Of a DNA stretch of 64,000 nucleotides, positions 14,801 to 56,589 are shown in pieces. Source of the stretch: a virus; IMG/VR virus record IMGVR_UViG_3300042308_001616, positions 58,861 to 122,860 of that record. One strand, written 5' to 3'. The notes under the pieces were generated by a model, which did no database searches, had not been told where the DNA came from, and was given only the letters and a program-made list of their open reading frames with translations. Both the position numbers and the translations under genes were made by a program. The first letter of the stretch is position 1. Every line of letters starts with the position of its first letter.

Positions 14801-15464
14801 TTGGCAGTCAAATGACACAAGTATATCAATACAATCAACTGGCACACAATCTAATCCAGATAGACCAGCAGTTCCGTCAATAATACTAACTGCACAACAG
14901 GTTATGTACACACAATTGGGTGCAACTGGTAATTCTGGATCTTCGGGTACATCTGGTTCATCAGGAACTTCTGGTTCGTCCGGTAGTTCAGGTTCATCCG
15001 GTTCATCAGGAAGTTCAGGTTCGAGTGGTTCGTCAGGAACGTCTGGTCTTCTATTATTGAATGGGTCGACCGATAATGGAATAATAACACTAAACGGGTC
15101 AGTACCAAATGCAACTGTCGAAACAAATCTAACATTTGACGGAAACACATTACGTGCAAATGCAAATGCAACAACTGTTCCACTTATAATTGCATCCGGA
15201 TCGTCTACACAGGATCTCGTGAGGATAACACAAACAGGAACAGGAAACGCATTCGTCGTAGAAGATAGTTCGAATCCGGATTCAACACCATTCGTTATAA
15301 GTAATACCGGAAATGTTGGTATCGGGACGGCATCACCAACCGACAATTTATCAGTAGCAGGAAATGTTAAAATAACCGGAACTATGAGTGGTTCGAGTAA
15401 CAATACAATACTTACGGACACACTCATACAAGCAGGCTTATTATACCTTTCTAACAACTGTTAA
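11883..15464 (+). CDS. Collagen-like repeat fibre protein 1 (1193 aa; tail fibre / fibril)
   Basis: Three Gly-X-Y tracts (mostly GSS/GTS/GIS/GES triplets) at about 12231-12420, 14349-14440 and 14943-15070. The N-terminal motif GSYGRLVQV..G..YYDGFGNLL and the C-terminal module (ITQTGTGNAFVVEDSSNPDSTPFVISNTGNVGIGT...LLYLSNNC) are both shared with the downstream giant gene. Confidence 0.8.
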   Translation: MSYNLTGVTVSGSYGRLVQVIHGSPDTYYDGFGNLLNLGPGTASVGPQGPTGPQGLSVNWMGPWDSMMNYFTYDMVSYDGNSYIYISNTPGSSITTPDSDPSKWDIMTQNIKGATGSIGATGSTGSSGSSGTSGSSGESGSSGTSGSSGISGSSGTSGSSGISGSSGTSGSSGISGSSGTSGINGATGPGFAGISAYIHVTSTYSITTNDYYIDANGSFDVILPLGVQGRSYAIKNTGTGVITVKGTASQLIDKLPSYNLAFYDTLIVESDGSNWLVQNTQTKTFIRVYNNTGSIIPKGTALKIQSTYNGIPSVSLPLASLHSTNQQVIGLAYIDIPNESEGIAISGGILSGLNLSSYSVGDILYLSDTIAGGFVNSTDSLQFSSRTNQIGYVTSTSSTIGTIQVEINNEDINLTLTDIERNILEGNVISTGVYHYLGMTKTSSITFTVASASGWIVKNTGELATKPDVQNVIYGGTTSITTPYLNSADSTYVLLTASSSLMLQSTFPSPQQRRENIFLGKVVHPDRQTILNVNNTVDYDVSPMSSLRDLWTPLKLVNQGIIPSAHSTTLEFNTSAGTLWGNGIGWTTNELNPNSVLIGGQSPVTFQYRTQMGGSFSNTTLIDPSHYDNAGTVTLVGGGNGSSTNQRIYLFPTGLIRVQYGQTVYGTLSEAITGTQEELFTEFVNNRDNGILIGILSINKNATNLSNPLQARFNFVSKFGEILGGSGGISTTTLQQAYDNSSTPEIVTNTSLGAVSFKRGSASDTDNVIEVLSGNGSNGVTFSVTGQGRTNTNTLTIHGIGATAGLTNYVVVDNSGNTYYQTGTIGSGSNGSSGSSGVSGSSGTSGSSGTSGVNGAGGTLGYYGSFYDTSNQFNLTASVPMAMTINSQYEANGVSIVDGSKMTFTHPGTYNLQFSTVFNKSNSNSGSVDIWFARNGDYITNSNTLFYAAGQATSIAAWNYMTTLNANDYIQLYWQSNDTSISIQSTGTQSNPDRPAVPSIILTAQQVMYTQLGATGNSGSSGTSGSSGTSGSSGSSGSSGSSGSSGSSGSSGTSGLLLLNGSTDNGIITLNGSVPNATVETNLTFDGNTLRANANATTVPLIIASGSSTQDLVRITQTGTGNAFVVEDSSNPDSTPFVISNTGNVGIGTASPTDNLSVAGNVKITGTMSGSSNNTILTDTLIQAGLLYLSNNC

Positions 15465-15511: not shown

Positions 15512-18500
15512 TTGGCTAGAAATCCTAAATACCAGATACGTAACCTCTCTACTGACGGTTATGGAAGATTAGTACAAGTTGTAAATGGAGTTTATTACGA
15601 TGGATTTGGTAATATTTTAAGTATTGGTAGTGTTGGTAGTTCAGGAATCATTGGCGGTTCGTCGGGAACATCGGGTTTAAGTGGAAACTCTGGGTCATCG
15701 GGTTCATCCGGAACATCAGGGCTAAGTGGAAACTCTGGGTCATCCGGAACATCGGGTTCTTCTGGATACTCAGGAACATCAGGTTCAAGTGGAACGAGTG
15801 GTGTTTCGGATAAGTATAAGACTACAACGGTTCACACAATGCCAGTTCCGAGTGTGGATGACATTATATTATTAGAATCTCTTGATACAGGTCTTGCATA
15901 CACAGTAGGACAATCAATAATATTGGCGGAATCTGCGTACGATTATCTGGAAGGTATTGTTCAAAGTTATAGTCCAATAACGGGTGATATGTACGTTATT
16001 GTCAAATATGTCGTTGGTTCGCCTGATGGGCCAGATTTTACGATAAATATTGATGGAACAACTGGGTCATCCGGAACATCTGGGTCATCCGGAATTAGTG
16101 GTTCATCCGGATCTTCCGGAACACGTGGTAGTTCAGGTTCGTCCGGTTCTTCTGGTATTTCCGGTTCGTCCGGAACTTCGGGGTCTTCCGGAGAAAGTGG
16201 TTCTTCTGGTATTTCCGGTTCTTCTGGTATTTCCGGTTCGTCCGGAACTTCGGGGTCTTCCGGAGAAAGTGGTTCTTCTGGTATTTCCGGTTCTTCTGGA
16301 ACTTCAGGTTCGTCAGGAGAAAGTGGTTCCTCTGGAACTTCTGGGTCTTCCGGTTCTTCTGGAGCTTCTGGAACTTCAGGTTCGTCAGGAGAAAGTGGTT
16401 CCTCTGGAACTTCTGGGTCTTCCGGTTCTTCTGGAGCTTCTGGAACTTCTGGGTCATCAGGAACGTCCGGTTCTTCTGGGTCATCAGGTTCATCAGGAAC
16501 TTCTGGGTCATCTGGTGAAAGTGGATCATCCGGAACTTCTGGTTCATCCGGAACTTCTGGTTCTTCTGGATCCAGTGGAACAGGATTTGACACAATTTCA
16601 AATCCATCTGATAACAGATTATTGACATCGGATGGAACTACCAACGCAGCGGTTGCTGAAAGTAATCTAACATTTGATGGTAGTTTGTTAACAATGATTG
16701 GTTCTTCCAATTTTGGAACATCTTCTGGAACACAAAATCTATATGGTAGTGTAATTTCCAATGATAGTTTCTCCATTGGGACACAACAATTTTTCCCACA
16801 AGGTAATAACGGATTTTCAGTCAATGAAAACTTTGACGCCAGTAATAGCACATCTCAAACGGCTTATCATTTTACATCTGGCTCAAACACAAAAAATATA
16901 GTATTTACTTTAGCAAAAACCGGAGAATATACGACAGTTTTTGGTACAGATGGTAGTTCAACTTCCAATAAATTTGTAATAGGCTCAGAAACATCGAATA
17001 CCGTTTTTCAATTCAAAAGTGGATTGGGAATACAACCAATTAACTTAGACGGCGGTTCTGTGATGTTTGAGGTGGCTACAAATTCATTATTTGCACCAAA
17101 TATACCATCCGGTACAACCGAGACGGATATATTAGTCAGAGATGGTAGTGGTTATATTACATACAGAAGTGATTTAAGTTTATCAGGAACGTCTGGGTCT
17201 TCCGGTAGTGCAGGTTCATCAGGAACATCCGGTTCTTCTGGGTCTTCCGGTTCATCTGGATCATCAGGAACATCAGGAACATCAGGAACGTCTGGGTCTT
17301 CCGGTTCATCTGGATCATCAGGTTCTTCCGGAACATCAGGAACGTCTGGGTCTTCCGGTAGTGCAGGTTCATCAGGAACATCCGGTTCATCTGGATCATC
17401 AGGTTCTTCCGGAACATCAGGAACGTCTGGGTCTTCTGGGTCTTCCGGTTCATCTGGAACATCAGGTTCATCTGGAACGTCTGGTTCTTCTGGGTCTTCC
17501 GGTTCATCAGGAACGTCCGGTTCTTCTGGGTCTTCCGGTTCTTCTGGAACATCAGGTTCATCAGGAACGTCTGGTTCTTCCGGTTCATCTGGAACGTCTG
17601 GTTCTTCTGGGTCTTCCGGTTCATCAGGAACGTCCGGTTCATCAGGAACGTCTGGGTCTTCCGGTTCTTCTGGAACATCAGGTTCTTCTGGTTCATCTGG
17701 AACTTCTGGGTCTTCCGGTAGTGCAGGTTCATCAGGAACGTCTGGGTCTTCCGGTTCATCAGGAACATCTGGTTCGTCTGGATCAACAGGTTCGTCTGGG
17801 TCATCAGGATCAGCAGGAAGTTCAGGTTCTACCGGGTCTTCGGGAACGTCAGGAAGTTCAGGTTCATCAGGAACAAGAGGTTCGTCTGGGTCATCAGGTT
17901 CTACCGGATCTTCGGGGTCTTCTGGATCAGCAGGAACATCAGGATCTTCCGGTACATCTGGTTCGTCTGGGTCAGCAGGAACATCTGGTTCGTCTGGGTC
18001 AGCAGGAACATCTGGTTCGTCTGGGTCTTCCGGTACATCAGGTTCGACAGGATCATCCGGAACAAGTGGTGCACAAGGACCACAGGGTATATCCGCAGGT
18101 CAGATATACTATTTCAATATGTCTATGACAGCTTCTGTAAATGGATATAGGTCGCTTTCAACAACACCACTTCCAAATGGTGGCACATATTCAATAGAAA
18201 CACTTACGGGGAATGAGTCAGGACATTTAGTAGAGACTTTTATGACAGATCCATTAGGATTTTCTATCATTCCTGGTGGAACACAAAGGTTTCACTTACA
18301 TTTTTTAAAGGGTGCGGTTGGTGATGATATAGAGGCTTATGTGAGTATAAGACTTAGTGATAGTGTAGGTGTTCCTATTGGACCTACGTTATCAAGCAAC
18401 AAACAATACATTGGATGGAATGACTCAACAACTAATGTAGAGGTACTAACCGATTTAACACTTCCAACGACCGGAATAGATCCAACCAACAGAATGCTTG

Positions 18501-21500
18501 TAAGCATATATTTGGATAACAAGGATTCGAATTCAAGAACGGTTCAATTTCACACAGAAGGAACGGATGATTATTCTTATGTCATAACGTCTGTTGGTGT
18601 TGTGAATGGAACTTCTGGGTCTTCCGGTTCAAGTGGTTCTACAGGAACTTCCGGATCTTCTGGCTCATCCGGAACTTCTGGAACTTCTGGAACGTCTGGT
18701 TCTTCCGGTAGTGCAGGATCATCAGGTACAAGAGGTTCATCCGGGTCATCAGGAACTTCTGGTTCATCGGGAACTTCTGGTTCGTCTGGAACATCTGGAA
18801 CTTCTGGTTCGTCTGGAACATCAGGTTCGTCTGGTAGTTCTGGTTCATCAGGAAGTTCTGGTTCGTCCGGAACATCTGGAACATCTGGATCTTCTGGTTC
18901 GTCTGGAACATCTGGATCTTCTGGTAGTTCTGGTTCATCAGGAACTTCTGGTTCGTCTGGAACTTCTGGTTCGTCTGGAACTTCCGGTACTTCGGGTTCT
19001 TCCGGTACTTCGGGTTCATCTGGAACTTCCGGTACTTCGGGTTCTTCTGGAACTTCTGGAACATCTGGTTCATCAGGTACTTCGGGCTCTTCCGGAACAT
19101 CTGGTTCATCAGGTACTTCGGGCTCTTCCGGAACATCTGGTTCTTCTGGTAGTTCCGGTACGAGAGGATCATCGGGTTCTTCCGGAACATCTGGGTCATC
19201 CGGAACATCTGGGTCATCCGGAACGTCTGGTTCTTCCGGTTCATCTGGAACTTCTGGAACATCCGGTTCTTCCGGTTCGAGTGGGTCGTCCGGGTCTTCC
19301 GGGTCTTCTGGAACATCTGGTTCTTCCGGAACGTCTGGTTCTTCCGGTAGTTCCGGTACGAGAGGATCATCCGGTTCTTCTGGATCATCGGGAACTTCCG
19401 GGGTAAATGGAATCGACTCTGCGAGTTTTGAGTACACTTATAGTACAACGACCACTGCGTCGGATCCTGGATCAGGTTTCTTCAGACTAAACAACCTAAC
19501 TATGGGTAGTGCGACCTCACTTTACATAGACAGATTTGACAGAAATGGTAATAACGACTTACAAAACTTCTTCAGTTCGCTTACAAACTACGGTTCGACA
19601 AATAGACGAGGTTTCATAAAGATAACTAAACAGAACGACCTTACATGGTTTCAGACATATGAATTTAGTGCGACAACCGATAACACAGGATGGTGGACGA
19701 TTACCATAAATAACGTAATACTCGATGCCAACTTTACAAACAACGATTTGTGTTTTATCAGTTTCAATGTTTCAGGACCAACGGGAACAAGTGGGAGTTC
19801 AGGAACATCTGGTTCTTCCGGTTCATCTGGAACTTCCGGTACTTCGGGTTCTTCTGGAACTTCTGGAACATCTGGTTCATCAGGTACTTCGGGCTCTTCC
19901 GGAACATCTGGTTCATCTGGAACTTCCGGTTCTTCCGGAACGTCTGGTTCTTCTGGTAGTTCCGGTACGAGAGGATCATCGGGTTCTTCCGGAACATCTG
20001 GGTCATCAGGAACATCTGGTTCGAGTGGGTCTTCAGGAACATCTGGTTCTTCCGGTTCATCTGGAACTTCTGGTTCGAGTGGGTCTTCAGGAACATCTGG
20101 TTCTTCCGGTTCATCTGGAACTTCTGGGCCATCCGGGTCTTCTGGGTCATCTGGAACATCTGGTTCTTCCGGGTCATCTGGAACATCTGGTTCTTCCGGG
20201 TCATCTGGAACATCTGGTTCTTCCGGGTCATCTGGAACATCTGGTTCTTCCGGGTCTTCTGGGTCATCTGGAACATCTGGTTCTTCCGGGTCTTCTGGGT
20301 CATCTGGAACATCTGGTTCTTCCGGTAGTGCAGGATCATCAGGTACAAGAGGTTCATCCGGGTCATCAGGAACATCTGGTTCTTCCGGGTCTTCAGGAAC
20401 ATCTGGTTCGAGTGGTTCTTCCGGCACTTCTGGATTACTAAGTCTAACAGGTTCAACTGATAATGGTGTTATAACTCTCAATGGTTCCATTCCAAATGCT
20501 ATAGTTGAAAGTAATCTTACATTTGATGGTAGTATACTAAATGTGACTGGTCGTATTATTGCATCCGCATCAACTTCTACGGACCTTTTAAGACTAACAC
20601 AAGTAGGAACAGGAAACGCTTTTGTTGTAGAGGATAGTACGAATCCGGACATTACCCCGTTTGTTATACAGGGTGATGGAAAAGTCGCCATAGGAACTTC
20701 TTCCACCGTTGCAAACTTAGAGGTTAGAGCCAATGGTGCAAACGGTATATTACTGGGTCAAGATCTTGCAGCGAGTGGACAATCGAGTAGACTTTTCTTC
20801 AGCAACGGAACAGACGGACAACACATAGCAATACTCAATTCAAATAACGGAGGATTCGATTTCAGAACTCTATCAACTGCGAATGTTTCCACTGGAACTC
20901 AAAGGATGACAATTGCAGCAGGTGGTGATGTCTACATAGCACAGTCCCTCGGAATAAACCAACCAACACCTACTGCAAAAATACATGTGGTACCTGGTTC
21001 AACACAATCTGGTCTTATAGTTGCAGGTAATAGTGATCAAGATATGGTCAGGATAACACAGATAGGAACAGGTAACGCAATTATTGTTGAAGATAACACG
21101 AATCCAGACTCAACACCTTTCGTCGTTGATGCATCAGGAAACATAGGTGCAGGAACCGCATCACCATCAACAAAATTACACGTATTCTCTACGACGAGTG
21201 GTGCTATAAGAATAGTCGACGGAACACAGCAGAATGGATACGTACTTACATCCGATGCAAACGGGTTGGCAACATGGCAAGTATCATCTGGTGGTGGTTC
21301 ATCACTGAGTGGTACAATCAACTACGTTCCATTCTACAAAACAACCACAACACTATCATCTACGAGTTCGATACAGGTCTCTGGTGATACAGTCGGAATA
21401 GGAGTTTCATTCTCAAACACCGGTGGACCGAGTACAGACTACAGACTGCACGTAAACTATGGATCTGGTACCTACGGTGTTCTAATTGAAGGTGGTGGTG

Positions 21501-22813
21501 GAATTTCCGAAAACATACCACTTAGATTATGGGACAGTGGAACAGGTACAAACAATATAAATATTTTAGAGTTTGGACACGCAACTGCGAGTCCTAAACT
21601 ATATGTTCCGGGTGCACGTATAAAATCTACAAATCCTGGTTCCGGTGCAACAACAGGAGCTCATTTAATATTAGAAACTTCGTCAATATCAAATCCAACA
21701 TCAACAACTTGGAATACCAATCAACTCTATTTGAGAAATGATGGAAATGTAGGTATCGGAACAAATACACCAACTTCATATTTAACAATAAACACACCAG
21801 GTGGTTCATTGTATAGTGGTGGTTCTACAGGGGAACATGCAATATTAATAGGTAGTCAGTCCACTGGTTCTGTTGCTGCATATATAGGAACCGACGAAAC
21901 ACTTTCCGCGATGTACATACAATCTGGTATAAGAGGTGGTGCCGCAACTCCTATACTACTAAACGCACAGGGTGGAAACATCGGAATCGGTGTGACATCA
22001 CCTTCTGCAAAATTACACGCAGTAACTAATGTATCATCAATTCCGTTGATAATAGCATCCGGATCTACAACGGTTGATTTGGTGAGAATAACGCAGGTCG
22101 GTACAGGAAACGCTTTTGTGGTTGAAGATGCTACAAATCCAGATACCACACCATTTGCTATAACCAACACCGGAAAGGTAAAGGTTGGAACGACCGTCGA
22201 TTCAATCTATTCATCCAATATATATTCGATATCAACGACATATGGATTAGAGGCATATGGTGATTTAGCAGGAGTATACGCACGAGGATTAACTTATGGA
22301 ATTGTAGCAGAAGCGGCTACTGATGGAATGGTAGTTGCAGGTATTATGGCATCTGCAACAAACGACCAATTTATGTATGGAGTATACTACGGTGGAATGT
22401 TCTCGGCAAACTCATCAAATGGTGTCAATTACGCGGTAAGGTTACAGGATGGATCACAAGGATTGAACAAAGTTCTGGTGGACACCATAGGTGACGGATC
22501 TGCCAACTGGAAAAGTGATCTGAGTATAACATCAATCATAGCTTCTGCATCAAGTACTTCTGATATAGTAAGAATCACCCAAACCGGAACAGGAAATGCG
22601 TTAGTCGTTGAAGATTCAACAAATCCAGATGCAACACCTTTTGTTATAACATCTACGGGAAATGTTGCAATAGGAACACAATCTACAAATAACACACTAC
22701 ACGTACAGGGTTCTATGGAACTCACCGGAACATTCTCGGGTAGTAATTCTAATTTCGTAGATGCAAACCTTATAACACAAACCGTTCTACTCTATATGTC
22801 GAACAACACTTAG
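15512..22813 (+). CDS. Giant collagen-like repeat fibre protein 2 (2433 aa)
   Basis: Five Gly-Ser-Ser / Gly-Thr-Ser collagen-like tracts (about 53, 160, 315, 240 and 200 aa) separated by globular beta-rich domains. Four copies of the ITQ.GTGNA.VVED.TNPD.TPFV module. Apparent TTG start at 15512; its N-terminal motif is paralogous to fibre 1. Confidence 0.8.
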   Translation: MARNPKYQIRNLSTDGYGRLVQVVNGVYYDGFGNILSIGSVGSSGIIGGSSGTSGLSGNSGSSGSSGTSGLSGNSGSSGTSGSSGYSGTSGSSGTSGVSDKYKTTTVHTMPVPSVDDIILLESLDTGLAYTVGQSIILAESAYDYLEGIVQSYSPITGDMYVIVKYVVGSPDGPDFTINIDGTTGSSGTSGSSGISGSSGSSGTRGSSGSSGSSGISGSSGTSGSSGESGSSGISGSSGISGSSGTSGSSGESGSSGISGSSGTSGSSGESGSSGTSGSSGSSGASGTSGSSGESGSSGTSGSSGSSGASGTSGSSGTSGSSGSSGSSGTSGSSGESGSSGTSGSSGTSGSSGSSGTGFDTISNPSDNRLLTSDGTTNAAVAESNLTFDGSLLTMIGSSNFGTSSGTQNLYGSVISNDSFSIGTQQFFPQGNNGFSVNENFDASNSTSQTAYHFTSGSNTKNIVFTLAKTGEYTTVFGTDGSSTSNKFVIGSETSNTVFQFKSGLGIQPINLDGGSVMFEVATNSLFAPNIPSGTTETDILVRDGSGYITYRSDLSLSGTSGSSGSAGSSGTSGSSGSSGSSGSSGTSGTSGTSGSSGSSGSSGSSGTSGTSGSSGSAGSSGTSGSSGSSGSSGTSGTSGSSGSSGSSGTSGSSGTSGSSGSSGSSGTSGSSGSSGSSGTSGSSGTSGSSGSSGTSGSSGSSGSSGTSGSSGTSGSSGSSGTSGSSGSSGTSGSSGSAGSSGTSGSSGSSGTSGSSGSTGSSGSSGSAGSSGSTGSSGTSGSSGSSGTRGSSGSSGSTGSSGSSGSAGTSGSSGTSGSSGSAGTSGSSGSAGTSGSSGSSGTSGSTGSSGTSGAQGPQGISAGQIYYFNMSMTASVNGYRSLSTTPLPNGGTYSIETLTGNESGHLVETFMTDPLGFSIIPGGTQRFHLHFLKGAVGDDIEAYVSIRLSDSVGVPIGPTLSSNKQYIGWNDSTTNVEVLTDLTLPTTGIDPTNRMLVSIYLDNKDSNSRTVQFHTEGTDDYSYVITSVGVVNGTSGSSGSSGSTGTSGSSGSSGTSGTSGTSGSSGSAGSSGTRGSSGSSGTSGSSGTSGSSGTSGTSGSSGTSGSSGSSGSSGSSGSSGTSGTSGSSGSSGTSGSSGSSGSSGTSGSSGTSGSSGTSGTSGSSGTSGSSGTSGTSGSSGTSGTSGSSGTSGSSGTSGSSGTSGSSGTSGSSGSSGTRGSSGSSGTSGSSGTSGSSGTSGSSGSSGTSGTSGSSGSSGSSGSSGSSGTSGSSGTSGSSGSSGTRGSSGSSGSSGTSGVNGIDSASFEYTYSTTTTASDPGSGFFRLNNLTMGSATSLYIDRFDRNGNNDLQNFFSSLTNYGSTNRRGFIKITKQNDLTWFQTYEFSATTDNTGWWTITINNVILDANFTNNDLCFISFNVSGPTGTSGSSGTSGSSGSSGTSGTSGSSGTSGTSGSSGTSGSSGTSGSSGTSGSSGTSGSSGSSGTRGSSGSSGTSGSSGTSGSSGSSGTSGSSGSSGTSGSSGSSGTSGSSGSSGTSGPSGSSGSSGTSGSSGSSGTSGSSGSSGTSGSSGSSGTSGSSGSSGSSGTSGSSGSSGSSGTSGSSGSAGSSGTRGSSGSSGTSGSSGSSGTSGSSGSSGTSGLLSLTGSTDNGVITLNGSIPNAIVESNLTFDGSILNVTGRIIASASTSTDLLRLTQVGTGNAFVVEDSTNPDITPFVIQGDGKVAIGTSSTVANLEVRANGANGILLGQDLAASGQSSRLFFSNGTDGQHIAILNSNNGGFDFRTLSTANVSTGTQRMTIAAGGDVYIAQSLGINQPTPTAKIHVVPGSTQSGLIVAGNSDQDMVRITQIGTGNAIIVEDNTNPDSTPFVVDASGNIGAGTASPSTKLHVFSTTSGAIRIVDGTQQNGYVLTSDANGLATWQVSSGGGSSLSGTINYVPFYKTTTTLSSTSSIQVSGDTVGIGVSFSNTGGPSTDYRLHVNYGSGTYGVLIEGGGGISENIPLRLWDSGTGTNNINILEFGHATASPKLYVPGARIKSTNPGSGATTGAHLILETSSISNPTSTTWNTNQLYLRNDGNVGIGTNTPTSYLTINTPGGSLYSGGSTGEHAILIGSQSTGSVAAYIGTDETLSAMYIQSGIRGGAATPILLNAQGGNIGIGVTSPSAKLHAVTNVSSIPLIIASGSTTVDLVRITQVGTGNAFVVEDATNPDTTPFAITNTGKVKVGTTVDSIYSSNIYSISTTYGLEAYGDLAGVYARGLTYGIVAEAATDGMVVAGIMASATNDQFMYGVYYGGMFSANSSNGVNYAVRLQDGSQGLNKVLVDTIGDGSANWKSDLSITSIIASASSTSDIVRITQTGTGNALVVEDSTNPDATPFVITSTGNVAIGTQSTNNTLHVQGSMELTGTFSGSNSNFVDANLITQTVLLYMSNNT

Positions 22814-26490: not shown

Positions 26491-27181
26491 TATTTCTGAG
26501 ATAGAGGAGGTATTCAAAGATGTCTTCCAGGAAGAGGAAGGATTGGTTAAATCGATAGAAACTATATACGAGAAACCACAAAAGGAAAATGCAGAATTCC
26601 TGAAACTCGTAATATCAATACATGGACTATCAACGACAGACACCAATATCATACACACTAAATTTCTCTTCAAAACTGACTTAGAAAAAAGAGATATTGT
26701 AGAGAAAGAGTTTATCTACCTTTACGACATAAACTGTGTATATCACAAAGTGCAGTTTGATAATACTATCGACCTAAAAGAGAAGATAGAAGGAATTATA
26801 GAATCCAATAACTTCGGTGAGGACATAATAATACTCTCCGACTTCATTGAGGCACCTGCGATGTTTTTGAACTACTATATGAAAAGAGCGAAAATAGAAG
26901 ACTATTCAATATTTGATGTAGAGTATGAGCCTAAGTTCAAAACAACTCCATGTGATAAGACTACATTCGACTTCAAAATAAACATAAACAATAACTACAA
27001 CATAGATATGTCTATCTACAAAGTAGACAGAGAAAATGATGAAGATGTAGACCACTACAAATTCCAGTTCAGATTTATGGATGATATCGAGACTTACGAA
27101 ACTGAAGACCTCAAAAATATACACTATTTCATAGGATCCAAAATTGCCAAAACATTAGATAAAAAACTTAAGAACAAATGA
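26447..27181 (+). CDS. Hypothetical protein (244 aa)
   Basis: ORF; its start overlaps the upstream gene. Confidence 0.45.
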   Translation: MTDSLRKKHTDMKISISEIEEVFKDVFQEEEGLVKSIETIYEKPQKENAEFLKLVISIHGLSTTDTNIIHTKFLFKTDLEKRDIVEKEFIYLYDINCVYHKVQFDNTIDLKEKIEGIIESNNFGEDIIILSDFIEAPAMFLNYYMKRAKIEDYSIFDVEYEPKFKTTPCDKTTFDFKININNNYNIDMSIYKVDRENDEDVDHYKFQFRFMDDIETYETEDLKNIHYFIGSKIAKTLDKKLKNK

Positions 27182-27660
27182 GAATAATTAAATTGTTCGA
27201 AGAGTTTACCTATAATGATGTTGGTGCTGCGATAGTTTACCACGGTACACCAGACGAACACGATTTTAACAAAAGAGGATATTTAGCAAACGGAACTTTC
27301 TTCTCTACAAGTTCTAACGAAGCTAGTTCGTATGGAAAACATATCTATAAGATTGAACTCAAAAAAGATTTGAATATACTCGATACAAACAAAATTGAAG
27401 ATTGTCAGAAGATAATTGACGAATTTGGACCATTAGAAGATCCTTATTACAATACAGACGAACCCGAATACTTAGTTAACACGGCAGAGGAACTTTGGCA
27501 CCATAGTGATAGTTGGTCACCAATTGAAGCAGATGAACAACTTATGTCTTGGCTAAATGGAAATTATGATGGTGTTTGGGTCTACGAAGGTGGTACCAGA
27601 AATTTACTAATATTCAAACCAGTAGAAGAAAAGATTGATAAAACCTTTAAAGTGAAATAA
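27178..27660 (+). CDS. Hypothetical protein (160 aa); possible mini ADP-ribosyltransferase-like fold (speculative)
   Basis: AIVYHGT (H-G-[ST]), GTFFSTSSNEA (aromatic pair / STS-like), then IYKIEL or YEGG acidic candidates. Order resembles H-Y-E ARTs (PARP/DarT/Tpt1) but spacing is compact. Confidence 0.4.
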   Translation: MRIIKLFEEFTYNDVGAAIVYHGTPDEHDFNKRGYLANGTFFSTSSNEASSYGKHIYKIELKKDLNILDTNKIEDCQKIIDEFGPLEDPYYNTDEPEYLVNTAEELWHHSDSWSPIEADEQLMSWLNGNYDGVWVYEGGTRNLLIFKPVEEKIDKTFKVK

Positions 27661-28874: not shown

Positions 28875-28899
28875 AATATCAAAAAAAGAGAGTATAAAC

Positions 28900-28930
28900 A
28901 AAAAAGACCGCGTTCATAGCGGTCTTTCTT
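28900..28930. terminator. Rho-independent terminator (AAAGACCGC-GTTCATA-GCGGTCTTT), bidirectional
   Basis: A-run, 9-bp GC-rich stem, T-rich tail; lies between convergent gene blocks. Confidence 0.6.
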
Positions 28931-29213: not shown

Positions 29214-29215
29214 AA

Positions 29216-30148
29216 CTAAACTCTTTTTCCAGTTTCTGGATCGTAGTTCATAATAAGAAGTTCAATACCCTTCTCCTTCTCTACACCCTCTGTCTTAATA
29301 ACTGCCGATGGTCTGTGAAACTCCTTCGATGTCCAGATGTATTTATCTTTCGGTAGAATTTCTTCAAGTAACGGGAAGTAGTAATAAGATAAAGACCATC
29401 TCGATTTAGTTGTCTTCAATAGTTCTAATAACCTTCTATGTGAAGCAACTCCAAACGTGTTCTCGTCATCACATCCGTACCAAAACAAACGTCTACCATC
29501 ATCATCATTCTTAACGTCATTGAATCGAGCGTAAGGCGGATCCAGGTAAATATAAGTGTCTTCTGAATCGTATTTACGAATAACCTCCTCAAAGTCCATA
29601 TTATGGAAGTCAGTTATATTCTTCAAACGCTCAGTGTATTTATTCTTCTCTAATTTGTTAATCAAAATACTAAGGTTCAGTTTATCCTTCTTCTTTTTAT
29701 AACCAGTGAATCCACCACCACGAGGATACACACTAGAAAATGATGATGTGATTAAGAACGCATACATAGCCGCTTTATCTAAATCACCAATCTCGAAGTC
29801 CATATCGTCTAAGAAGTCGTTTTGAACGTATTCCCTATAAATTGCCTTATAGAAGTCCCATTTGTCGTCCACAGACGTCGCAGTGCAGTGTAACTTACCA
29901 CCCGGTGCCATCAATGCTTTCAATACTGGAAGGAAGTTTTCTGGATCGGAACAACACTTCATCAGATTGGCCTGATGTCTGTTACGATCATTGAAAACAA
30001 CAGTGTTGAACTCCATCTTAGAGTCTAAATAAATTGCAAAAGAACCAGAGAATGGCTCAATATACGTGGTACACTCCTCGAACGGTATGTTCGGAGTTAT
30101 AAAGGATTGGAAGGCGGCCTTTCCGCCAAAATAAGAGACTATCGACAT
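29216..30148 (-). CDS. dam: DNA N6-adenine methyltransferase (Dam-like, D12 class)
   Basis: N-terminal VSYFGGKAAF and catalytic IYLDPPYA (DPPY) motifs. Confidence 0.8.
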   Translation of the reverse strand: MSIVSYFGGKAAFQSFITPNIPFEECTTYIEPFSGSFAIYLDSKMEFNTVVFNDRNRHQANLMKCCSDPENFLPVLKALMAPGGKLHCTATSVDDKWDFYKAIYREYVQNDFLDDMDFEIGDLDKAAMYAFLITSSFSSVYPRGGGFTGYKKKKDKLNLSILINKLEKNKYTERLKNITDFHNMDFEEVIRKYDSEDTYIYLDPPYARFNDVKNDDDGRRLFWYGCDDENTFGVASHRRLLELLKTTKSRWSLSYYYFPLLEEILPKDKYIWTSKEFHRPSAVIKTEGVEKEKGIELLIMNYDPETGKRV

Positions 30149-30243
30149 TTTTGCTTGATTTTATTAGGTTTTTTTTACTTTTTTCTATATCTGATCTTTG
30201 TCTTACTTATACTTATTGTGATGTCAAAAGTTTCCGTTTTCGA

Positions 30244-30750
30244 TTAAATACCTAATATTGCATCAAGACCAACTCTGTGAACACCACGTAGTTCATCTCT
30301 TACTTTCATAAGTATTTTACCAAGATGGTTCTGTCCTCTACCATTACAGACGCCCCAGAAGGTGTCGTTCCAGGTATTGCCTTCGACCAATTCTTCGTCA
30401 CCGGTTTCGACCAACATCTCTGCTAAAATTTCAATTTTGAATTTCTCTCGTATTGCCCAGTTCATAAAATCGAGTTTCTTCTCGTTCCAGTCTTTTCTTA
30501 TAGACATCTTCTGACCGATTTTCTTTACCATTCCGGGATATGCAATTCGTGCAATCATCTCGCGAAAATCTACGGGTGTATATTGATTTCCGTTAATTAA
30601 TTGTGGACCATTACATTTCATCGCTACATAATAGTGTTCAACGGATGGATAAACTATACCCTGGTGTTCTATCTCACAGGGGTAGAAGTTTGACAGGAAA
30701 CCGTACCTACCTTCGAATTTTTGTATCATAATATTTACCAATATAACCAA
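30244..30750 (-). CDS. NADAR (YbiA-like, DUF1768) domain protein: putative ADP-ribosyl hydrolase
   Basis: GFLSNFYPCEIEHQGIVYPSVEHYYVAMK matches the NADAR core (F.LSNF..........Y.S.EH.YQA.K). Confidence 0.7.
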   Translation of the reverse strand: MVILVNIMIQKFEGRYGFLSNFYPCEIEHQGIVYPSVEHYYVAMKCNGPQLINGNQYTPVDFREMIARIAYPGMVKKIGQKMSIRKDWNEKKLDFMNWAIREKFKIEILAEMLVETGDEELVEGNTWNDTFWGVCNGRGQNHLGKILMKVRDELRGVHRVGLDAILGI

Positions 30751-31022
30751 GCAGCGTCTTTATAATTATCGTCAAACTCAGCATTATAACCTTTTAGTAT
30801 TTTATGAAGTGTTTGTTTTTGTTTTGCACGTCTTACACGGTTTAACATCTTTCTGAAATATTTAGGTGCAGAGTTGTAGTAGGCGTTCCACTCATAAAAG
30901 TTATTATCAAGATATGAAGATACCCAAGCATCTCTGGATTCAGATACGTCACGACCAAGAAACTCCATACGGAGTGCCCTGAACAACTTCTCTCTTTCCC
31001 AGTGTTTGTTACCGTGCTTCAT
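30735..31022 (-). CDS. Hypothetical protein (95 aa)
   Basis: ORF; overlaps the NADAR gene start by 16 nt. Confidence 0.4.
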   Translation of the reverse strand: MKHGNKHWEREKLFRALRMEFLGRDVSESRDAWVSSYLDNNFYEWNAYYNSAPKYFRKMLNRVRRAKQKQTLHKILKGYNAEFDDNYKDAAWLYW

Positions 31023-31048
31023 AATGGCGAAGATACGAATTAAATGTG

Positions 31049-31079
31049 AAAGCCCTCTTATGAGGGCTTTCTTTTTTTG
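31049..31079 (+). terminator. Terminator-like hairpin (AAAGCCCTC-TTATGA-GGGCTTT plus TCTTTTTTTG)
   Basis: Strong hairpin with T-run on the + strand at the edge of a long noncoding region. No obvious + strand gene precedes it, so it may be part of an RNA element. Confidence 0.35.
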
Positions 31080-31488
31080 TGGAGATGATCGGGAACTGAC
31101 CCCGATGTACTAATCAGACACCAATAGGTGCTCTTTCACAGGCTTAGTGAATTTTTCTAAACTCACAAAATAGTTAGTTGAATTAACCCGTCACTCTAAC
31201 AATACTGGTTCCGCATTTGGACTGCACGGTACAGTTTGGAGAATTTTTTTTCGTCGGTATATTTCTACGCCAACTCGAGCTCGTTAGAGCCGATTTTTCT
31301 TAGGGCCGCTACTAAATCTTCACGGTTTCCTACTTCATTTGTTTTGCCATTTACGACAGTTTATCGCCTAATTTATAAATCGGACATTCGACAACCCGAT
31401 ACCTGCACAACTACCTGTAATCCGCTAGGCGAATCCATGACATCCCCTTGTTGTGTTTGTTATATATTATATTCAAAGAACATAAAAA
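31080..31488. other. ~410-nt noncoding region, GC-richer than flanks; candidate structured RNA or regulatory region
   Basis: No credible ORF. Local GC visibly higher (~45%) than the ~33% around it. Several hairpins (e.g. GATCGGGAACTGACCCCGATG at 31087-31107). No canonical tRNA cloverleaf could be confirmed by eye. Confidence 0.25.
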
Positions 31489-31521
31489 AGTTGATTCGGA
31501 CAGTACAAACTGCCCGAATCA
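31489..31521. terminator. Terminator hairpin (TTGATTCGG-14 nt-CCGAATCAA) downstream of the SPFH gene
   Basis: 9-bp stem; T-rich on both sides (TTTTTTATG on the minus strand after the hairpin). Confidence 0.45.
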
Positions 31522-31526
31522 ATTTG

Positions 31527-32471
31527 TTATTTTACATTTACCAATGTGTTGCTGCCGTTACCAAGCACGGTCTCAGAGTTGTGACCATCCCATTTCTCAA
31601 TCTTTTTGTATTCTACAAACAATGGAGTAAGTTTTTGTTGTGTAAGTTCCATCGCCTTAGCTTTTGCAGATGCGTTGATTACCGTTTCTGCGGAGTCGGC
31701 TCTTGCAACAGCAACTTTTCTCTCACCATCTGCGACTGCAGCGATTGCTTGTTGTTTAGAAGCCTCTGCTTGTTGCACAGATTTAGTTTTAGCGATGATT
31801 GCTTCTTGAAGTGCCTCTGGTGGAATGATGTTTGATCTCATCTGTGATACTATGAACCACTTAGATAATCTTAAGTTACATTCTGCAACAATTGCAATTT
31901 CAAATGCTTGACGGTGTCCGAAGATTGAATCAACCTCCCAGGTATTAGCAACGTCATTTACTGCACCAACAATCGCGTTCTTTAGCCAACCTTGCTCTAC
32001 TTCTTTGATAGGCAAACGTAGGTTCACAAACATATCTCCAACTGCGGTAGGTTTCAAAGAGTAGTTGAACGAAGGTTTGATGTCGGCCGGGAAACCACCT
32101 TTGGTAATTACTTGTTGTTGGTCGAACTCTATGTGCTGCTGGAACGTAGGAAACTCATATAAGTTCTCTGTCCAGGTGTTGTAAACAACCCAACCTGTTT
32201 TGTACTGATACTTAGAAACACCTCTATTGTCCCCAGTAAGGTTCACTTTAATTCCGACGTGACCCGCATCTACTCTTTCGATAGCGAACGGCTGGATGAA
32301 TGCGAAGATAAGTAACCCGACACCGGCAACGATACCGATTGTGACCGACTTCCGACCCTCGGCCTTCTGTGTAGTGTTGTTGTAACCTGCATCTTGTATC
32401 GTCCTGATACCTGTGATGATTTTGTAGGCAGCGAAACCTAAGGCCACTAGTGCCAAAATTGTAGTTATCAT
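31527..32471 (-). CDS. SPFH / band-7 (stomatin-prohibitin-flotillin-HflK/C) domain membrane protein
   Basis: N-terminal TM helix, ERVDAGHVGIKV core and a C-terminal Ala/Gln/Glu-rich coiled coil (QQAEASKQQAIAAVADGERKVAVARADSAE), typical of HflK/HflC-like proteins. Confidence 0.7.
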   Translation of the reverse strand: MITTILALVALGFAAYKIITGIRTIQDAGYNNTTQKAEGRKSVTIGIVAGVGLLIFAFIQPFAIERVDAGHVGIKVNLTGDNRGVSKYQYKTGWVVYNTWTENLYEFPTFQQHIEFDQQQVITKGGFPADIKPSFNYSLKPTAVGDMFVNLRLPIKEVEQGWLKNAIVGAVNDVANTWEVDSIFGHRQAFEIAIVAECNLRLSKWFIVSQMRSNIIPPEALQEAIIAKTKSVQQAEASKQQAIAAVADGERKVAVARADSAETVINASAKAKAMELTQQKLTPLFVEYKKIEKWDGHNSETVLGNGSNTLVNVK

Positions 32472-32687: not shown

Positions 32688-32927
32688 CTAATTCGTTGTT
32701 TCAAACTCGAAGACAAAATCTCTTCCTTCGGACCACCAAATACAGTCACCTACGTTGGCAATTGCCTCAAAGAAATTTATTAGGTCGTCTATTAAAATAT
32801 TACCTGGTGTGAAGAAAAGTCTTTCTACTTTTCCTACTTTGTCTATTCTACACTCAAACTCTGCGGCAATTGACTCGAGTGTTTGATTTTCATTACTTTC
32901 ATAGAACGTTTTGTATTTCTTTATCAT
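32688..32927 (-). CDS. Hypothetical protein (79 aa)
   Basis: ORF only. Confidence 0.4.
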   Translation of the reverse strand: MIKKYKTFYESNENQTLESIAAEFECRIDKVGKVERLFFTPGNILIDDLINFFEAIANVGDCIWWSEGRDFVFEFETTN

Positions 32928-33940
32928 AATCCAACAATAATATATCCGTTTTCAACATTAACCGTGTCGATGTCGGTGAGTATATCTTTAAGTTTGTTGA
33001 TTTCCCTTATTGTATCAGGAATAGGCCATCCCTCCACATCAAAATATACATCGAAAGTATTATTCAACTGGTAGCCTGCATAAGAACGTAATCTCTTCAT
33101 TCGGTCGAGTACTTTTTTATGTTTTGCGGCCACTACTTCTTCTACATCTTCATCTTTAGATATAATTCGTGATGTAGGTAAAGACTCCCAATCAACATTT
33201 GTACTAGCACGGCAAAGTCTATCGAGATAAGATATGTTTTGTCTTTCCTTTCCTGTGTGTTCGTCGAAATAACCTACAGATACATTAGTACATTCTGGTA
33301 TATCATTCATAAGCATTGCAGAGTCAGTAAATATACCTGTGGAATCTGGAGACATTTTAAGTCCGTTTTTACCGAACTCCGCACAAAGTGTCTTCGCAAA
33401 TTCACTACTACAACAATTTCTACCTAATTGGTGTGTTATAATTGAGTGGTAATTTCTACGGTCAAAAGAAACACATCTTTTTATTCCTATAAGTTGTTCT
33501 TCGTTTGCGAAATCCATCGCAAGTGCTTTGGAACCAATTCCACCTCTTTCTTCACCGATAAAGAAGTAATATAATCCAGGAACATTGTTGGCCATCATAT
33601 AAAGCATAACGGTAACACCTGCTTTATCGTCTGCGCCTAATATTGTCTTTCCATCGGTACATATAAACTCATCTTCACCCTCTGTATAAGTAAACCTAAC
33701 GGTATCATTCTGTCTGTGATCAACGGTATCGAGGTGTGATGTAAACATAGTTGATGATCCACCACCTACTACTTTATAATAGTTGCCGTGAGCATCTTGG
33801 TCTAATTCTGGTAGATATTTAAGTACCTCTTCTTCGTTTCCGTGTGGGTATGTTTTTGATGTGAGTGAAAGAAATGTGTTTTTTGGGTCTTTCGGGTCCA
33901 TCTTACCCTCTTTGAAGTCTATTTTTTTCTTATCCATCAT
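32924..33940 (-). CDS. Putative Zn-dependent metallopeptidase (M20/M28/M42 aminopeptidase-like)
   Basis: SHLDTV ... GADDKAGV, a metal-ligand motif pair typical of the M20/M28/M42 peptidase clan; GEERGGIGS further downstream. Confidence 0.5.
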   Translation of the reverse strand: MMDKKKIDFKEGKMDPKDPKNTFLSLTSKTYPHGNEEEVLKYLPELDQDAHGNYYKVVGGGSSTMFTSHLDTVDHRQNDTVRFTYTEGEDEFICTDGKTILGADDKAGVTVMLYMMANNVPGLYYFFIGEERGGIGSKALAMDFANEEQLIGIKRCVSFDRRNYHSIITHQLGRNCCSSEFAKTLCAEFGKNGLKMSPDSTGIFTDSAMLMNDIPECTNVSVGYFDEHTGKERQNISYLDRLCRASTNVDWESLPTSRIISKDEDVEEVVAAKHKKVLDRMKRLRSYAGYQLNNTFDVYFDVEGWPIPDTIREINKLKDILTDIDTVNVENGYIIVGL

Positions 33941-34491: not shown

Positions 34492-36642
34492 TTATATTAA
34501 CTTTTCAAATTTAATCTTTCCACAATCATAAACTCTAAAAAGTTTATTTATTTGTGCATATTCTGACTCTGTCAAATATGTTTTCGTTTTAGATTTTTTA
34601 TATCTGGATTTATGAACCCTATTACCATCAACTATATACTTATAGTCTGGTAGACTTTCACTCACCTTTTCAAATCCTAATTGATAATAAAGATTACCAA
34701 CAGACCAATCACGATCCGCATAACTGATAACCCTTTTAGGTTTAAAGTTTCTAATAAAATAACTAAATAGTTTTGATGCACCACCAATTACCGTAGTATT
34801 TATAGAATTACAAAATCTATTGATGTTCCAATCAGATTCTGACATTTTTTTACGACCTTCGAAATGATCAAATGTCATCAAGCTAACTAATTGATTATTA
34901 AAAATCAAACCTAATTTCAAACAACTATTAACCTTACCCTGAATATGATTTTTTTCTAAAAAAGTCATAGCTGTTTTTGCATCAACTTCTATTATAGAAC
35001 ATTTTCTAGCATAAATAGTATTACTAATTTTATTCAACATATTTGAAATTTGTGACTCAATTATACTCCTTCTCATAACCCAATCATCCTCCCAAATATG
35101 AATAATACGTATATCTTTATTCCTAAAAAAATTAGTTTTATTTATGTGGTAATTTTTATTCTTATATTCACTACTGTGCCAATAAAGACCATTAAACTCA
35201 AATCCAATACCCAGATCAGGAAGATAAATATCTATCTCTAAATCATCTCTATAACCAGATATTACCTCACCATCATATATCCCAGTTATATAATTAAGTA
35301 ATTCTTTTTCCATTATAGACTTATTATCCCCAATAGGATAACAAATGGTACAAATAGGATTGCCTGAATTGGTTCTTTTTATATAATTGTCAACACCTAT
35401 TATAAATTTATGGTCTTTACCACAGTCACATATAAATAAACTATTCGAGTCAGAAATGTATTGAATATAATTTAAGTCATTTGCAACAATATATTTATTC
35501 TTTCTAAATTCTTCAGATTTTTGAATATTATCAATTCCAAATTGATTAATATTTGTCAATTTTGTTTTTTCTTTAGACTCATTTGTTTTAGAATAATTAT
35601 CAACACCATACTTTTCCAGACTCGTATTAACAACTTTATATTTAAACAAAGATGACTTAGAATGGTGTTCTACACCATATCTTTCTAAATTGGTATCTTT
35701 AGACTTCTTCTTAAAACTATCACTCTGATAATACCAATCAACACCATATTTTAGTTTATTAGTTATTTTAGTACGATTATTATACTCATCAGTCTGTGCA
35801 TAATATTTTACACCATATCTCTCTAAATTAGTCTTTGATGATTTATTTCTGAAGTCATCACTCTGATAATAGAATTCTGAACCATATTTTTCTTTATTTG
35901 TTTTAGTAACACGATTAAGAAATTCATCCGTCTTTGAATAATGATTTACACCATATTTCTCTAAATTAGTATTTAATGTCTTTTCTTTATACTCATCTGT
36001 TTGTGTATAATACTCTACACCATATTTCTCTAAATTTGTATTTATAGTCTTTTCTTTATACTCATCCGTTTGTGTATAATGTTCTACACCATATTTTTCG
36101 AGATTTGTATTTACTCTTTTGTCCTTTACCGAATCTAATTGTGATATGTGAGAAACTCCATATTTACTATTTATATTGTCGGACCATTTTTTCCTTACCT
36201 CCTCATTTTGAAAACTAGACTTATGGCCATATCTTTCTAAATTAGTATCCTCAATTTTTTTCTTTACTAAATCACTTTTTGCAACATTAGTAACTCCGTA
36301 TTTCTCTAAATTTGTTTTAATCCTCTTCTCTTTGGTTGATTTGTCAGATTGTGCACATTTAGGAGAACAATAATTTCTATAACCATCTAACCAGTTTTTA
36401 TTGAATGTAGTAGGATTACCACAACAACATAAAAATTTATTATCTATATCATTTACCCAATACCATAACTTTTCTTTAAAAGAAATATCTTCTATATTGG
36501 AACAAAAATCGTTTATTGTAGTAACAAGTTCTTCATAATTTTTCTCAAAAAAAGATTCACGTAATCTTGATGATGAACCATCAAGTATATCTAATATTAT
36601 TTTTTTCCTTTCTTCTATCATAAAGTATATATAAAGTAACAT
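34492..36642 (-). CDS. Putative free-standing homing endonuclease: Zn-ribbon N-terminus, ~12 tandem 22-aa repeats, Vsr-like PD-(D/E)xK nuclease domain
   Basis: N-terminus CCCGNPTTF...YCSPKC. Repeats of consensus TNLEKYGVxxYxQTDEYKEKT. Nuclease motif EIDIYLPDLGIGFEFNGLYWHS (E..G..WH as in Vsr/Tlr8p-PBCV-like HEs). Sits beside the major capsid gene. Confidence 0.55.
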   Translation of the reverse strand: MLLYIYFMIEERKKIILDILDGSSSRLRESFFEKNYEELVTTINDFCSNIEDISFKEKLWYWVNDIDNKFLCCCGNPTTFNKNWLDGYRNYCSPKCAQSDKSTKEKRIKTNLEKYGVTNVAKSDLVKKKIEDTNLERYGHKSSFQNEEVRKKWSDNINSKYGVSHISQLDSVKDKRVNTNLEKYGVEHYTQTDEYKEKTINTNLEKYGVEYYTQTDEYKEKTLNTNLEKYGVNHYSKTDEFLNRVTKTNKEKYGSEFYYQSDDFRNKSSKTNLERYGVKYYAQTDEYNNRTKITNKLKYGVDWYYQSDSFKKKSKDTNLERYGVEHHSKSSLFKYKVVNTSLEKYGVDNYSKTNESKEKTKLTNINQFGIDNIQKSEEFRKNKYIVANDLNYIQYISDSNSLFICDCGKDHKFIIGVDNYIKRTNSGNPICTICYPIGDNKSIMEKELLNYITGIYDGEVISGYRDDLEIDIYLPDLGIGFEFNGLYWHSSEYKNKNYHINKTNFFRNKDIRIIHIWEDDWVMRRSIIESQISNMLNKISNTIYARKCSIIEVDAKTAMTFLEKNHIQGKVNSCLKLGLIFNNQLVSLMTFDHFEGRKKMSESDWNINRFCNSINTTVIGGASKLFSYFIRNFKPKRVISYADRDWSVGNLYYQLGFEKVSESLPDYKYIVDGNRVHKSRYKKSKTKTYLTESEYAQINKLFRVYDCGKIKFEKLI
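35500..36340 (-). repeat. Tandem ~66-bp coding repeats (22-aa KYG repeat units) inside the homing endonuclease gene
   Basis: Visible periodicity in DNA and protein (TNLEKYGV.. x ~12). Confidence 0.6.
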
Positions 36643-56052: not shown

Positions 56053-56589
56053 ATGACAAAAAAATTAGTCTGCTTCGACTTCGACGACACGTTGTTCCAT
56101 ACACCTAGTCCAGAAGAAGGAAAAAATATTTGGCAAGAAGCCACAGGTAAGGAATGGCCATACATAGGATGGTGGGGTAAACACGAAACACTCGACACCG
56201 ACATATTCGAAATACCAATGAACGAATGGGTAAAGGAAAAGTATTTCGAACACGTAGAGGATCCAGAAACAAAAGTAATTGTGGCAACCGGAAGGTTGAA
56301 TAAAGTAAAGGGTATGAGAGAGAATATTGACAAAATATTCGAAAAGAATGATTTAACATTCCACGAAGTTCACCTAAACTGGGGAGGAGATACACTTGAC
56401 TTCAAAAAGAAACTTTTTGGACAGAAATTAGACGAACAAAAATACGATGAATTCATAATGTTTGATGATCGACAGGAACACCTACCTCATTTTGAAGAGT
56501 GGGCAGAGATAGAAGCAATCAACAGAAATATGAATATAACCGTCGTGGACGTAGTTAACAAAACATTAAAAACATTCAATCCATATTAG
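56053..56589 (+). CDS. HAD-superfamily phosphatase
   Basis: Motif I LVCFDFDDTLF (DxDxT) at the N-terminus; FDDRQEH later (motif IV-like acidic pair). Confidence 0.6.
   Translation: MTKKLVCFDFDDTLFHTPSPEEGKNIWQEATGKEWPYIGWWGKHETLDTDIFEIPMNEWVKEKYFEHVEDPETKVIVATGRLNKVKGMRENIDKIFEKNDLTFHEVHLNWGGDTLDFKKKLFGQKLDEQKYDEFIMFDDRQEHLPHFEEWAEIEAINRNMNITVVDVVNKTLKTFNPY

Follow-up and report, generated by a model that had tools for sequence, protein, structure and literature searches.

What does a huge phage gain from a NADAR gene that it keeps near its capsid genes, and from which molecule would the encoded protein remove its ligand? The question is raised by a 64,000-nt stretch of viral DNA (positions 58,861 to 122,860 of the IMG/VR record IMGVR_UViG_3300042308_001616), referred to here as the window, in which an earlier note made from the sequence had pointed to a YbiA-like ADP-ribosyl hydrolase. 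The reading favoured here, to which we give a somewhat better than even chance of about 55%, is that this NADAR removes guanine-linked, possibly also cytosine-linked, ADP-ribose (ADPr) from phage nucleic acid and would thus serve counter-defence as an orphan antitoxin.

The open reading frame (ORF) is a genuine phage NADAR gene, as the earlier note had proposed, and its family match lies far above chance. The match to Pfam PF08719 (DUF1768) covers profile positions 8-163 of 163 and scores 91.4 bits where the cutoff is 35.1 (E=9.8e-26), and phrog_1017 is matched with E=1.1e-41, while HMMER searches of PDB sequences retrieved Escherichia coli YbiA (2b3w, E=4.7e-15) and the Phytophthora nicotianae NADAR (PnNADAR; 8bau, E=1.4e-9). 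The motifs quoted in the earlier note, YGFLSNFYPCEIEHQGIVYPSVEHYYVAMK, are found in the minus-strand ORF. The window is clearly phage DNA, carrying genes for a major head protein, a prohead protease, a portal protein, a T4-type large terminase, collagen-repeat tail fibres and homing endonucleases. The span 30244-30750 that had been assigned to the gene is a real ORF, the longest one, counted from a TTG codon, but its start had to be revised. The true coding sequence is 30244..30729 on the minus strand (161 aa, stop codon included; single-domain and stand-alone), because a frame begun at the TTG would run across the upstream gene's stop codon (30735..30737), because the database protein P0001 has 161 aa and because the aligned relatives all start with MI.KF; the TTG start at 30750 was dropped on these grounds for the ATG at 30729, which lies 5 nt past the upstream stop. 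The product read from this ATG begins MIQKFEGRYGFLSNFYPCEIEHQGIVYPSVEHYYVAMK, with the FLSNF motif starting at residue 11. P0001 is 100% identical to it, and gene calling on the three contigs that bear this protein gave the same length and sequence; the longest contig listed for it measures 248,751 bp.

The gene is under purifying selection. In the strain variants L003 and L004 it differs from the window by two synonymous codons only, and in comparison with the more distant loci L011 and L012 the synonymous and non-synonymous codon changes number 57:33 and 74:44, respectively. Homologues are found in 507 phage records and among more than 7,700 database proteins. Strong long-term selection is indicated since the gene is kept in 80 related viral contigs at the same position, with invariant catalytic residues.

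Judged by its sequence, the window NADAR is of the YbiA type rather than of the DarG1 or T4 AdfN type. The third catalytic position distinguishes the subfamilies, being Glu in the YbiA type, Asp in the BC4488/DarG1 type and His in the T4 type (de Souza and Aravind; Schuller et al.), and in the window protein it corresponds to E116 within the sequence LVEGN, which aligns with E125 of PnNADAR and is invariant in the clade. Membership in the AdfN type was ruled out, as identity to T4 gp30.3 (AdfN) is 19%, the profile comparison by hhalign is not significant (probability of 5% over 31 columns) and the residue is Glu instead of His. The window protein nevertheless shares with AdfN the status of a phage-encoded orphan NADAR, the N-terminal SNF...E......K motif and the proposed role, whereas AdfN differs in being tuned to T-even infection or hydroxymethylated DNA and in leaving cytosine-linked ADPr (C-ADPr) untouched. 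With the DarG1 proteins (BC4488-type; those of G. lovleyi, 8bat, and E. coli C7) it has in common the superfamily and the predicted hydrolysis of guanine-linked ADPr (G-ADPr), but DarG1-type membership was likewise ruled out, given Glu instead of Asp, no adjacent DarT1, no N-terminal beta1-beta2-alpha1 extension and a poor fold match of its model to the DarT1-associated 8bat (template modelling (TM) score of 0.45, E=0.36).

The closest characterised relative is the NADAR of the T5-like coliphages Bas32 and Bas33 (bas33_0070; 39% identity over 151 aligned positions, 106 bits, E=9e-35), which is nearer than E. coli YbiA (34% identity, 75 bits). Both are stand-alone proteins of about 150-160 aa from lytic phages with no toxin partner, they agree in the Glu/Lys/Glu positions and in the motif EGNTW.DT.WGVC, and both are without the DarG1 N-terminal extension. 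They differ in that the window protein carries an 11-residue hairpin after the catalytic Lys and has Gln in place of a pyrophosphate-contacting Arg, in that the Bas33 gene sits among nucleotide-metabolism genes and not in a block of tmRNA, NADAR and Dam genes beside capsid genes, and in their hosts, E. coli for Bas32/33 and probably Bacteroidota for the window phage, as suggested by its relative LR745206. The closest cellular homologues reach at most 54% identity and are taxonomically scattered over archaeal and bacterial metagenome-assembled genomes (MAGs), the best being a 3.5-kb Flavobacteriaceae MAG contig (54%); a host call from these matches was abandoned, since they are too scattered to inform. 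The archaeal MAGs among them agree with the reported resemblance of NADAR-Bas32 to archaeal NADARs (PMC11257639).

An AlphaFold2 model of the window NADAR (pLDDT 91.5, pTM 0.85; predicted local distance difference test and predicted TM score) is consistent with this placement. It shows a predicted YbiA-like alpha+beta fold with a helical core and small flanking beta-hairpins, and Foldseek returned only two PDB matches at E<=0.001, namely YbiA 2b3w (TM 0.72) and PnNADAR 8bau with bound ADPr (TM 0.69). YbiA is thus the best PDB match by both sequence and fold, has the core fold without extensions and shares the third-position Glu, but it is encoded on a chromosome in a LexA-controlled operon and has no hairpin insertion. 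PnNADAR is a eukaryotic protein with additional N-terminal elements and 26% identity in the fold alignment.

Residues were mapped by HMMER alignment to 8bau, combined with the residue roles given by Schuller et al. In this alignment E31, K38 and E116 of the window protein are equivalent to E43, K50 and E125 of PnNADAR, which are ligands of the distal ribose and the phosphates, and E31 and K38 also align with E36 and K43 of T4 AdfN. The seven-residue spacing of Glu and Lys seen in PnNADAR (E43/K50), the E. coli C7 NADAR (E88/K95) and T4 AdfN (E36/K43) is found in E31/K38 as well. The equivalents of the catalytic Glu and Lys are essential in the E. coli C7 NADAR and in T4 AdfN, where their mutation abolishes activity or rescue (PMC11257639; Schuller et al.). 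Of the ADPr-contacting residues of PnNADAR, W89, D130 and W133 are identical in the window protein (W81, D122 and W125) and R93 is replaced by K85. Across 42 relatives of 63-84% identity, no variation is seen at E31, K38, W81, E116 and D122 and hardly any at K85 and W125.

Of the two deviations seen in the window protein, one is the 11-residue insertion after K38, which is clade-specific and confidently modelled as a beta-hairpin (residues 39-51). Within it, Q43 and G47 are invariant and Y50 and T51 nearly invariant in the same 42 relatives. PnNADAR likewise carries an insertion at this site, which contributes to an extension beside the active site, and the hairpin of the window protein may serve in substrate recognition.

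A further line of evidence comes from the gene order. Related loci were counted in 80 IMG/VR contigs (L011-L090), of which 74 have enough room downstream to be assessed for the next gene. The NADAR gene occupies the same position in all 80 contigs and in the 634-kb phage LR745206. A D12-class (Dam-like) N6-adenine DNA methyltransferase with a DPPY motif (29216..30148, minus strand; PF02086 E=3.5e-20, phrog_56, PADLOC MTase_II) lies 95 nt downstream on the same strand, and a same-strand methyltransferase follows the NADAR gene in 69 of the 74 loci and also in L005 and L006. The gap between the two genes is below 200 nt in most loci and 0.45-2.3 kb in 24 of the 69; a capsid gene is found within 6 kb upstream in 64 of the 80. 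NADAR and Dam therefore form a conserved pair beside the capsid module, where the genome is stable; a variable region begins past the methyltransferase. The accessory island drawn in the earlier note is right only in part: the Dam methyltransferase and an ART-like (ADP-ribosyltransferase-like) fold are real, but NADAR and Dam are not loose cargo. The nucleotidyltransferase-fold neighbour listed there was not confirmed, as Pfam, PHROG and PADLOC searches of the neighbouring ORFs found nothing; in particular, no Pfam or PHROG match was obtained for the ORFs at 26447-27181, 27674-28372, 28389-28874 and 28929-29213, nor a PADLOC match for 27674-28372 and 28389-28874.

Every gene between 28929 and 40683 is on the minus strand. 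In the direction of transcription the order is prohead protease, major capsid protein, homing endonuclease, small ORFs, an SPFH protein and a terminator-like hairpin, followed by a tmRNA-like gene, a second hairpin, a 95-aa ORF, NADAR, the D12/Dam methyltransferase and a 94-aa ORF. The second hairpin (31048..31071; 10 bp, GC-rich, terminator-like in both directions) divides the tmRNA-like gene from the block formed by the 95-aa ORF, NADAR and the methyltransferase. The 95-aa ORF (g33; 30735..31022, minus strand) has no Pfam, PHROG, NCBIfam or PADLOC match and has homologues in 19 of the 80 loci; with its stop codon 5 nt before the NADAR ATG, the two genes are probably co-transcribed and translationally coupled.

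How would such a protein act? In single-stranded phage DNA it would bind ADPr carried on the exocyclic amine of guanine, and possibly on that of cytosine, and cleave the bond between ribose and base, whereby ADPr would be released and the normal base restored. In this way the damage inflicted by a host DarT1-type DNA ADP-ribosyltransferase (ART), or by another guanine- or cytosine-directed ART, could be undone and replication of the phage genome enabled, with the NADAR acting as an orphan catalytic "antitoxin" carried by the phage. Counter-defence is the best-supported function because every phage NADAR tested removes G-ADPr and rescues from DarTG1: T4 AdfN and the Bas32 and Bas60 enzymes do so (Johannesman, Carlson and LeRoux 2024, PMC11257639), and NADAR-Bas32 restored plaquing of three DarTG1-sensitive phages and neutralised DarT1 (PMC11257639). 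Activity on G-ADPr has been published for each of the four NADAR families assayed, and E. coli YbiA and another YbiA-type enzyme hydrolyse both G-ADPr and C-ADPr in vitro; removal of cytidine-ADPr is known for YbiA- and for NADAR-type enzymes. For the window protein we infer that it is active as an enzyme, that DNA is its substrate and that it serves anti-defence in the host.

The earlier note had proposed counter-defence against DNA ADP-ribosylation as well, which agrees with the tested phage NADARs, but it named the wrong kind of DarT. Reversal of DarT2-type modification is excluded by the published biochemistry: NADARs reverse the guanine ADP-ribosylation introduced by DarT1 and not the thymidine ADP-ribosylation of DarT2, which requires the DarG macrodomain, and the Bas32 and Bas60 NADARs did not rescue a phage blocked by DarTG2 (PMC11257639). 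T4 AdfN behaves alike in vivo, giving back phage replication under DarTG1 and not under DarTG2. The note had also taken a place in the riboflavin-intermediate N-glycosidase branch as grounds for giving up an ADPr-directed activity; this argument is invalid, since the window protein is itself of the YbiA type and enzymes of this type hydrolyse G-ADPr and C-ADPr in vitro.

Several observations weigh against the favoured reading. R79 of PnNADAR, the Arg that contacts and shields the pyrophosphate, is replaced by Q73 in the window protein, followed by K74, and three aligned relatives likewise have Gln or Asn and then Lys or Arg at these positions. The basic N-terminal extension proposed for binding of single-stranded DNA in DarT1-linked NADARs is absent, although the validated phage NADARs mostly lack it too. 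YbiA and T4 gp30.3 hydrolyse G-ADPr in vitro and yet did not rescue cells from DarT1, for gp30.3 when outside infection. Furthermore, the gene comes after the late structural genes on the same strand, and the protein clears the NCBI cutoff for a "riboflavin biosynthesis intermediates N-glycosidase". As for the toxin, a literature search for DarTG in Bacteroidetes yielded nothing usable.

Among the competing explanations, the one that survives best, though improbable in our view, is that the protein processes soluble ADPr derivatives such as cyclic ADPr-type signals, ADPr-1''-phosphate or by-products of RNA repair and NAD+ (nicotinamide adenine dinucleotide) turnover, and thereby blunts NAD+/ADPr-based immunity or cleans up metabolites. 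Iyer, Burroughs and Aravind argued from gene context that diffusible ADPr derivatives are the targets of most Macro, NADAR, SLOG and Nudix proteins of phages, noted that NADARs are enriched in medium and jumbo phages with some copies among morphogenesis genes, and predicted RNA-repair systems as a context in which NADARs act. The window fits this in part, as the NADAR gene and the major capsid gene share a strand and are about 6 kb apart and as a HAD_SAK_1 domain (E=1e-7), from the HAD family of "Swiss Army Knife" RNA-repair proteins, is encoded at 56053..56589 on the plus strand, 26 kb from the NADAR gene. The proposal is, however, older than the biochemistry, and for every NADAR tested since the substrate is ADPr linked to a base of DNA or RNA; scans of the window proteins turned up no SLOG, Macro, Nudix, KptA or NAD-salvage domain in those covered, and the conserved partner of the gene is a DNA methyltransferase.

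Slightly less probable still is a role in RNA, in which the NADAR would reverse ADP-ribosylation of guanosine or cytidine in mRNA, tRNA or rRNA by a host RNA-targeting ART and so protect translation instead of DNA replication. According to the literature, NADARs are the sole hydrolase family found to reverse ADP-ribosylation of guanosine RNA bases, and YbiA-type enzymes are at least as good on RNA as on DNA. Moreover, the conserved block stands directly 3' of the phage tmRNA (transfer-messenger RNA), an element of translation rescue, in 71 of the 80 loci. This adjacency may be mere synteny, though, with terminator-like hairpins flanking the tmRNA; the known in vivo phenotypes of phage NADARs are only against DarT1, which acts on DNA, and the conserved downstream partner acts on DNA as well.

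Comparably doubtful is a more specific version of the favoured counter-defence reading, in which NADAR and the Dam methyltransferase form a single two-gene DNA-protection module in a Mahaphage-like clade. The hairpin-bearing NADAR would then be tuned to the methylated DNA of the phage or to a base-ADPr lesion other than that of DarT1, for instance cytidine-ADPr made by an undiscovered defence ART of Bacteroidota. T4 AdfN offers a precedent for such tuning, being suited to T-even infection, probably via hydroxymethylated DNA (PMC11257639). If true, it would suggest that the host has a new immune system acting by ADP-ribosylation of DNA.

The view that the protein is a housekeeping YbiA N-glycosidase which destroys reactive intermediates of the riboflavin pathway is considerably less likely than any of these. 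It takes its appeal from the automatic names "ribA/ribD-fused uncharacterized protein" and "N-glycosidase YbiA" (JGI), from the YbiA-type Glu and the top rank of YbiA among PDB structures, and from NCBIfam TIGR02464, which the window protein passes with 83.2 bits over a cutoff of 73.7. The pass is marginal: E. coli YbiA scores 169.5 bits, twice as much, while the NADAR of Bas33, validated against DarTG1, lies near the same margin with 66.8 bits, and it is to the latter and not to YbiA that the window protein is more similar. There is no RibA or RibD fusion, no riboflavin-pathway or NAD-salvage domain was detected among the roughly 50 proteins scanned in the 64-kb window, and an Rfam search upstream of the gene for a riboswitch for flavin mononucleotide (FMN) or NAD found none and returned the tmRNA match instead. 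A lytic huge phage has no evident need for such an activity, and YbiA itself hydrolyses base-linked ADPr. The automatic label of a riboflavin N-glycosidase or ribA-ribD-fused protein is thus misleading for phage NADAR genes of this kind.

Least likely is that the NADAR is the immunity or reversal partner of the ART-fold protein encoded 2.6 kb away, after the model of the YarT-YbiA toxin-antitoxin pair, in which a YbiA-type NADAR serves as antitoxin to an ART other than DarT, and of T4 gp30.3 near alt. The ART-like gene lies on the other strand, separated from NADAR by three ORFs; just 2 of the 80 loci that keep NADAR have it, and it is absent from the flanks of L001, L005 and L006 too. Its nearest relative is AcrIF11, by name and paper title a CRISPR-specific anti-CRISPR ART. 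The target of AcrIF11 is a side chain of a Cas protein and not a nucleobase. A functional coupling of the two genes was rejected on the co-occurrence in 2 of 80 loci, and the two are not linked. The ART-like protein itself (160 aa; 27178..27660, plus strand) is a candidate protein-targeting anti-defence ART. It matches Pfam ART-PolyVal (26 bits, E=1.5e-5) and NCBIfam AcrIF11 (23 bits, E=9e-5), both below the cutoff, and Foldseek placed its AlphaFold2 model (pLDDT 79) closest to AcrIF11 (6kyf), followed by MbcT, the RhsP2 toxin, tankyrase and diphtheria toxin; H22, F41/F42/S43 and E137 are invariant in 11 homologues. It has no match in PADLOC, DarT models included.

How far does this extend what is known? 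NADAR genes have already been catalogued in about 48% of medium and jumbo phages (Iyer, Burroughs and Aravind) and in 2024 phage NADARs were reported to act against DarTG1 (Johannesman et al., PMC11257639), so that the counter-defence concept is not new and the window NADAR is a plausible further member of this group. Mildly new are the conserved pairing with Dam, the clade-specific hairpin and the implication for huge phages infecting Bacteroidota. If the favoured counter-defence reading is correct, reversal of DNA ADP-ribosylation would reach beyond coliphages to huge uncultivated phages, probably infecting Bacteroidota, and their hosts would use guanine- or cytosine-directed DNA ADP-ribosyltransferases as immunity.

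The phage itself has no near-identical cultured counterpart. The window sequence was found in a Logan assembly with 100% identity, whereas a megablast search of positions 26000-34000 against 50,697 phage records returned no match, leaving only protein-level and distant DNA similarity. The best match for the NADAR in the phage database is LR745206.1 (68%). Gene order is shared with LR745206 and two other metagenomic contigs, whose prohead protease and major capsid protein have 72-77% identity to those of the window. The four largest curated huge-phage genomes (634, 636, 642 and 735 kb) belong to the Mahaphage clade, with Bacteroidetes as predicted hosts (Al-Shayeb et al.), and it is through LR745206 that a host among the Bacteroidota appears probable for the window phage.

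The tmRNA-like gene upstream of the NADAR block (31077..31447, minus strand) is a full-length match of 370 nt to Rfam RF00023, with 32.8 bits against a gathering score of 47 (E of about 1e-11); 11 of 11 related loci likewise fall below this score, and ARAGORN detected neither a tRNA nor a tmRNA in the window or its relatives. The acceptor stem of the element, GGGGAUG/CAUCUCC, includes a G3-U pair; a T-arm and a long P2 helix are present as well and are backed by compensatory double changes, seen at 37 of 56 RNAalifold pairs in 35 unique tmRNA sequences. Its tag frame is unusually long with 27-30 codons (GKTNEVGNREDLVAALRKIGSNELELA in the window) and is open and conserved as a peptide (GKTNEVG.REDLVAAL...) in 49 of 52 unique sequences. 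In addition to the 71 loci in which it precedes NADAR, the element is present in L001 (~7129-7500), L005 (~7546-7900) and L006 (7611-7947). Since the tmRNAs already known from huge phages were detected with ARAGORN (Al-Shayeb et al.), this divergent tmRNA family is probably unannotated.

Between the capsid genes and the tmRNA the window encodes an SPFH/Band-7 membrane protein (31527..32471, minus strand; Pfam E=4e-16) and a 338-aa protein (32924..33940, minus strand) that is present in 66 of the 80 loci and has a metallopeptidase-like look with its HLDTVDH and GADDKAG motifs, with no Pfam match. Directly downstream of the major capsid gene lies a homing/HNH endonuclease of 716 aa (34492..36642, minus strand; phrog_3339 E=5e-134), found in only 4 of the 80 related loci and thus probably a recent mobile insertion. 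Beyond the methyltransferase, 783 additional bp holding a 244-aa gene (2280-3062, against window positions ~28893-28898) are inserted between the 94-aa ORF and a 161-aa ORF in the strain variant L003, which is 94.7% identical over the region; the insertion marks the start of the variable region. Farther away on the plus strand, a 1,193-aa tail-fibre protein matching collagen-like tail families (11883..15464) precedes a 2,324-aa protein (15839..22813) with 13 stretches of collagen triple-helix repeats (Pfam Collagen E=6e-128), and at these collagen and tail-fibre genes the GC content rises to 0.43-0.46 from about 0.35 elsewhere.

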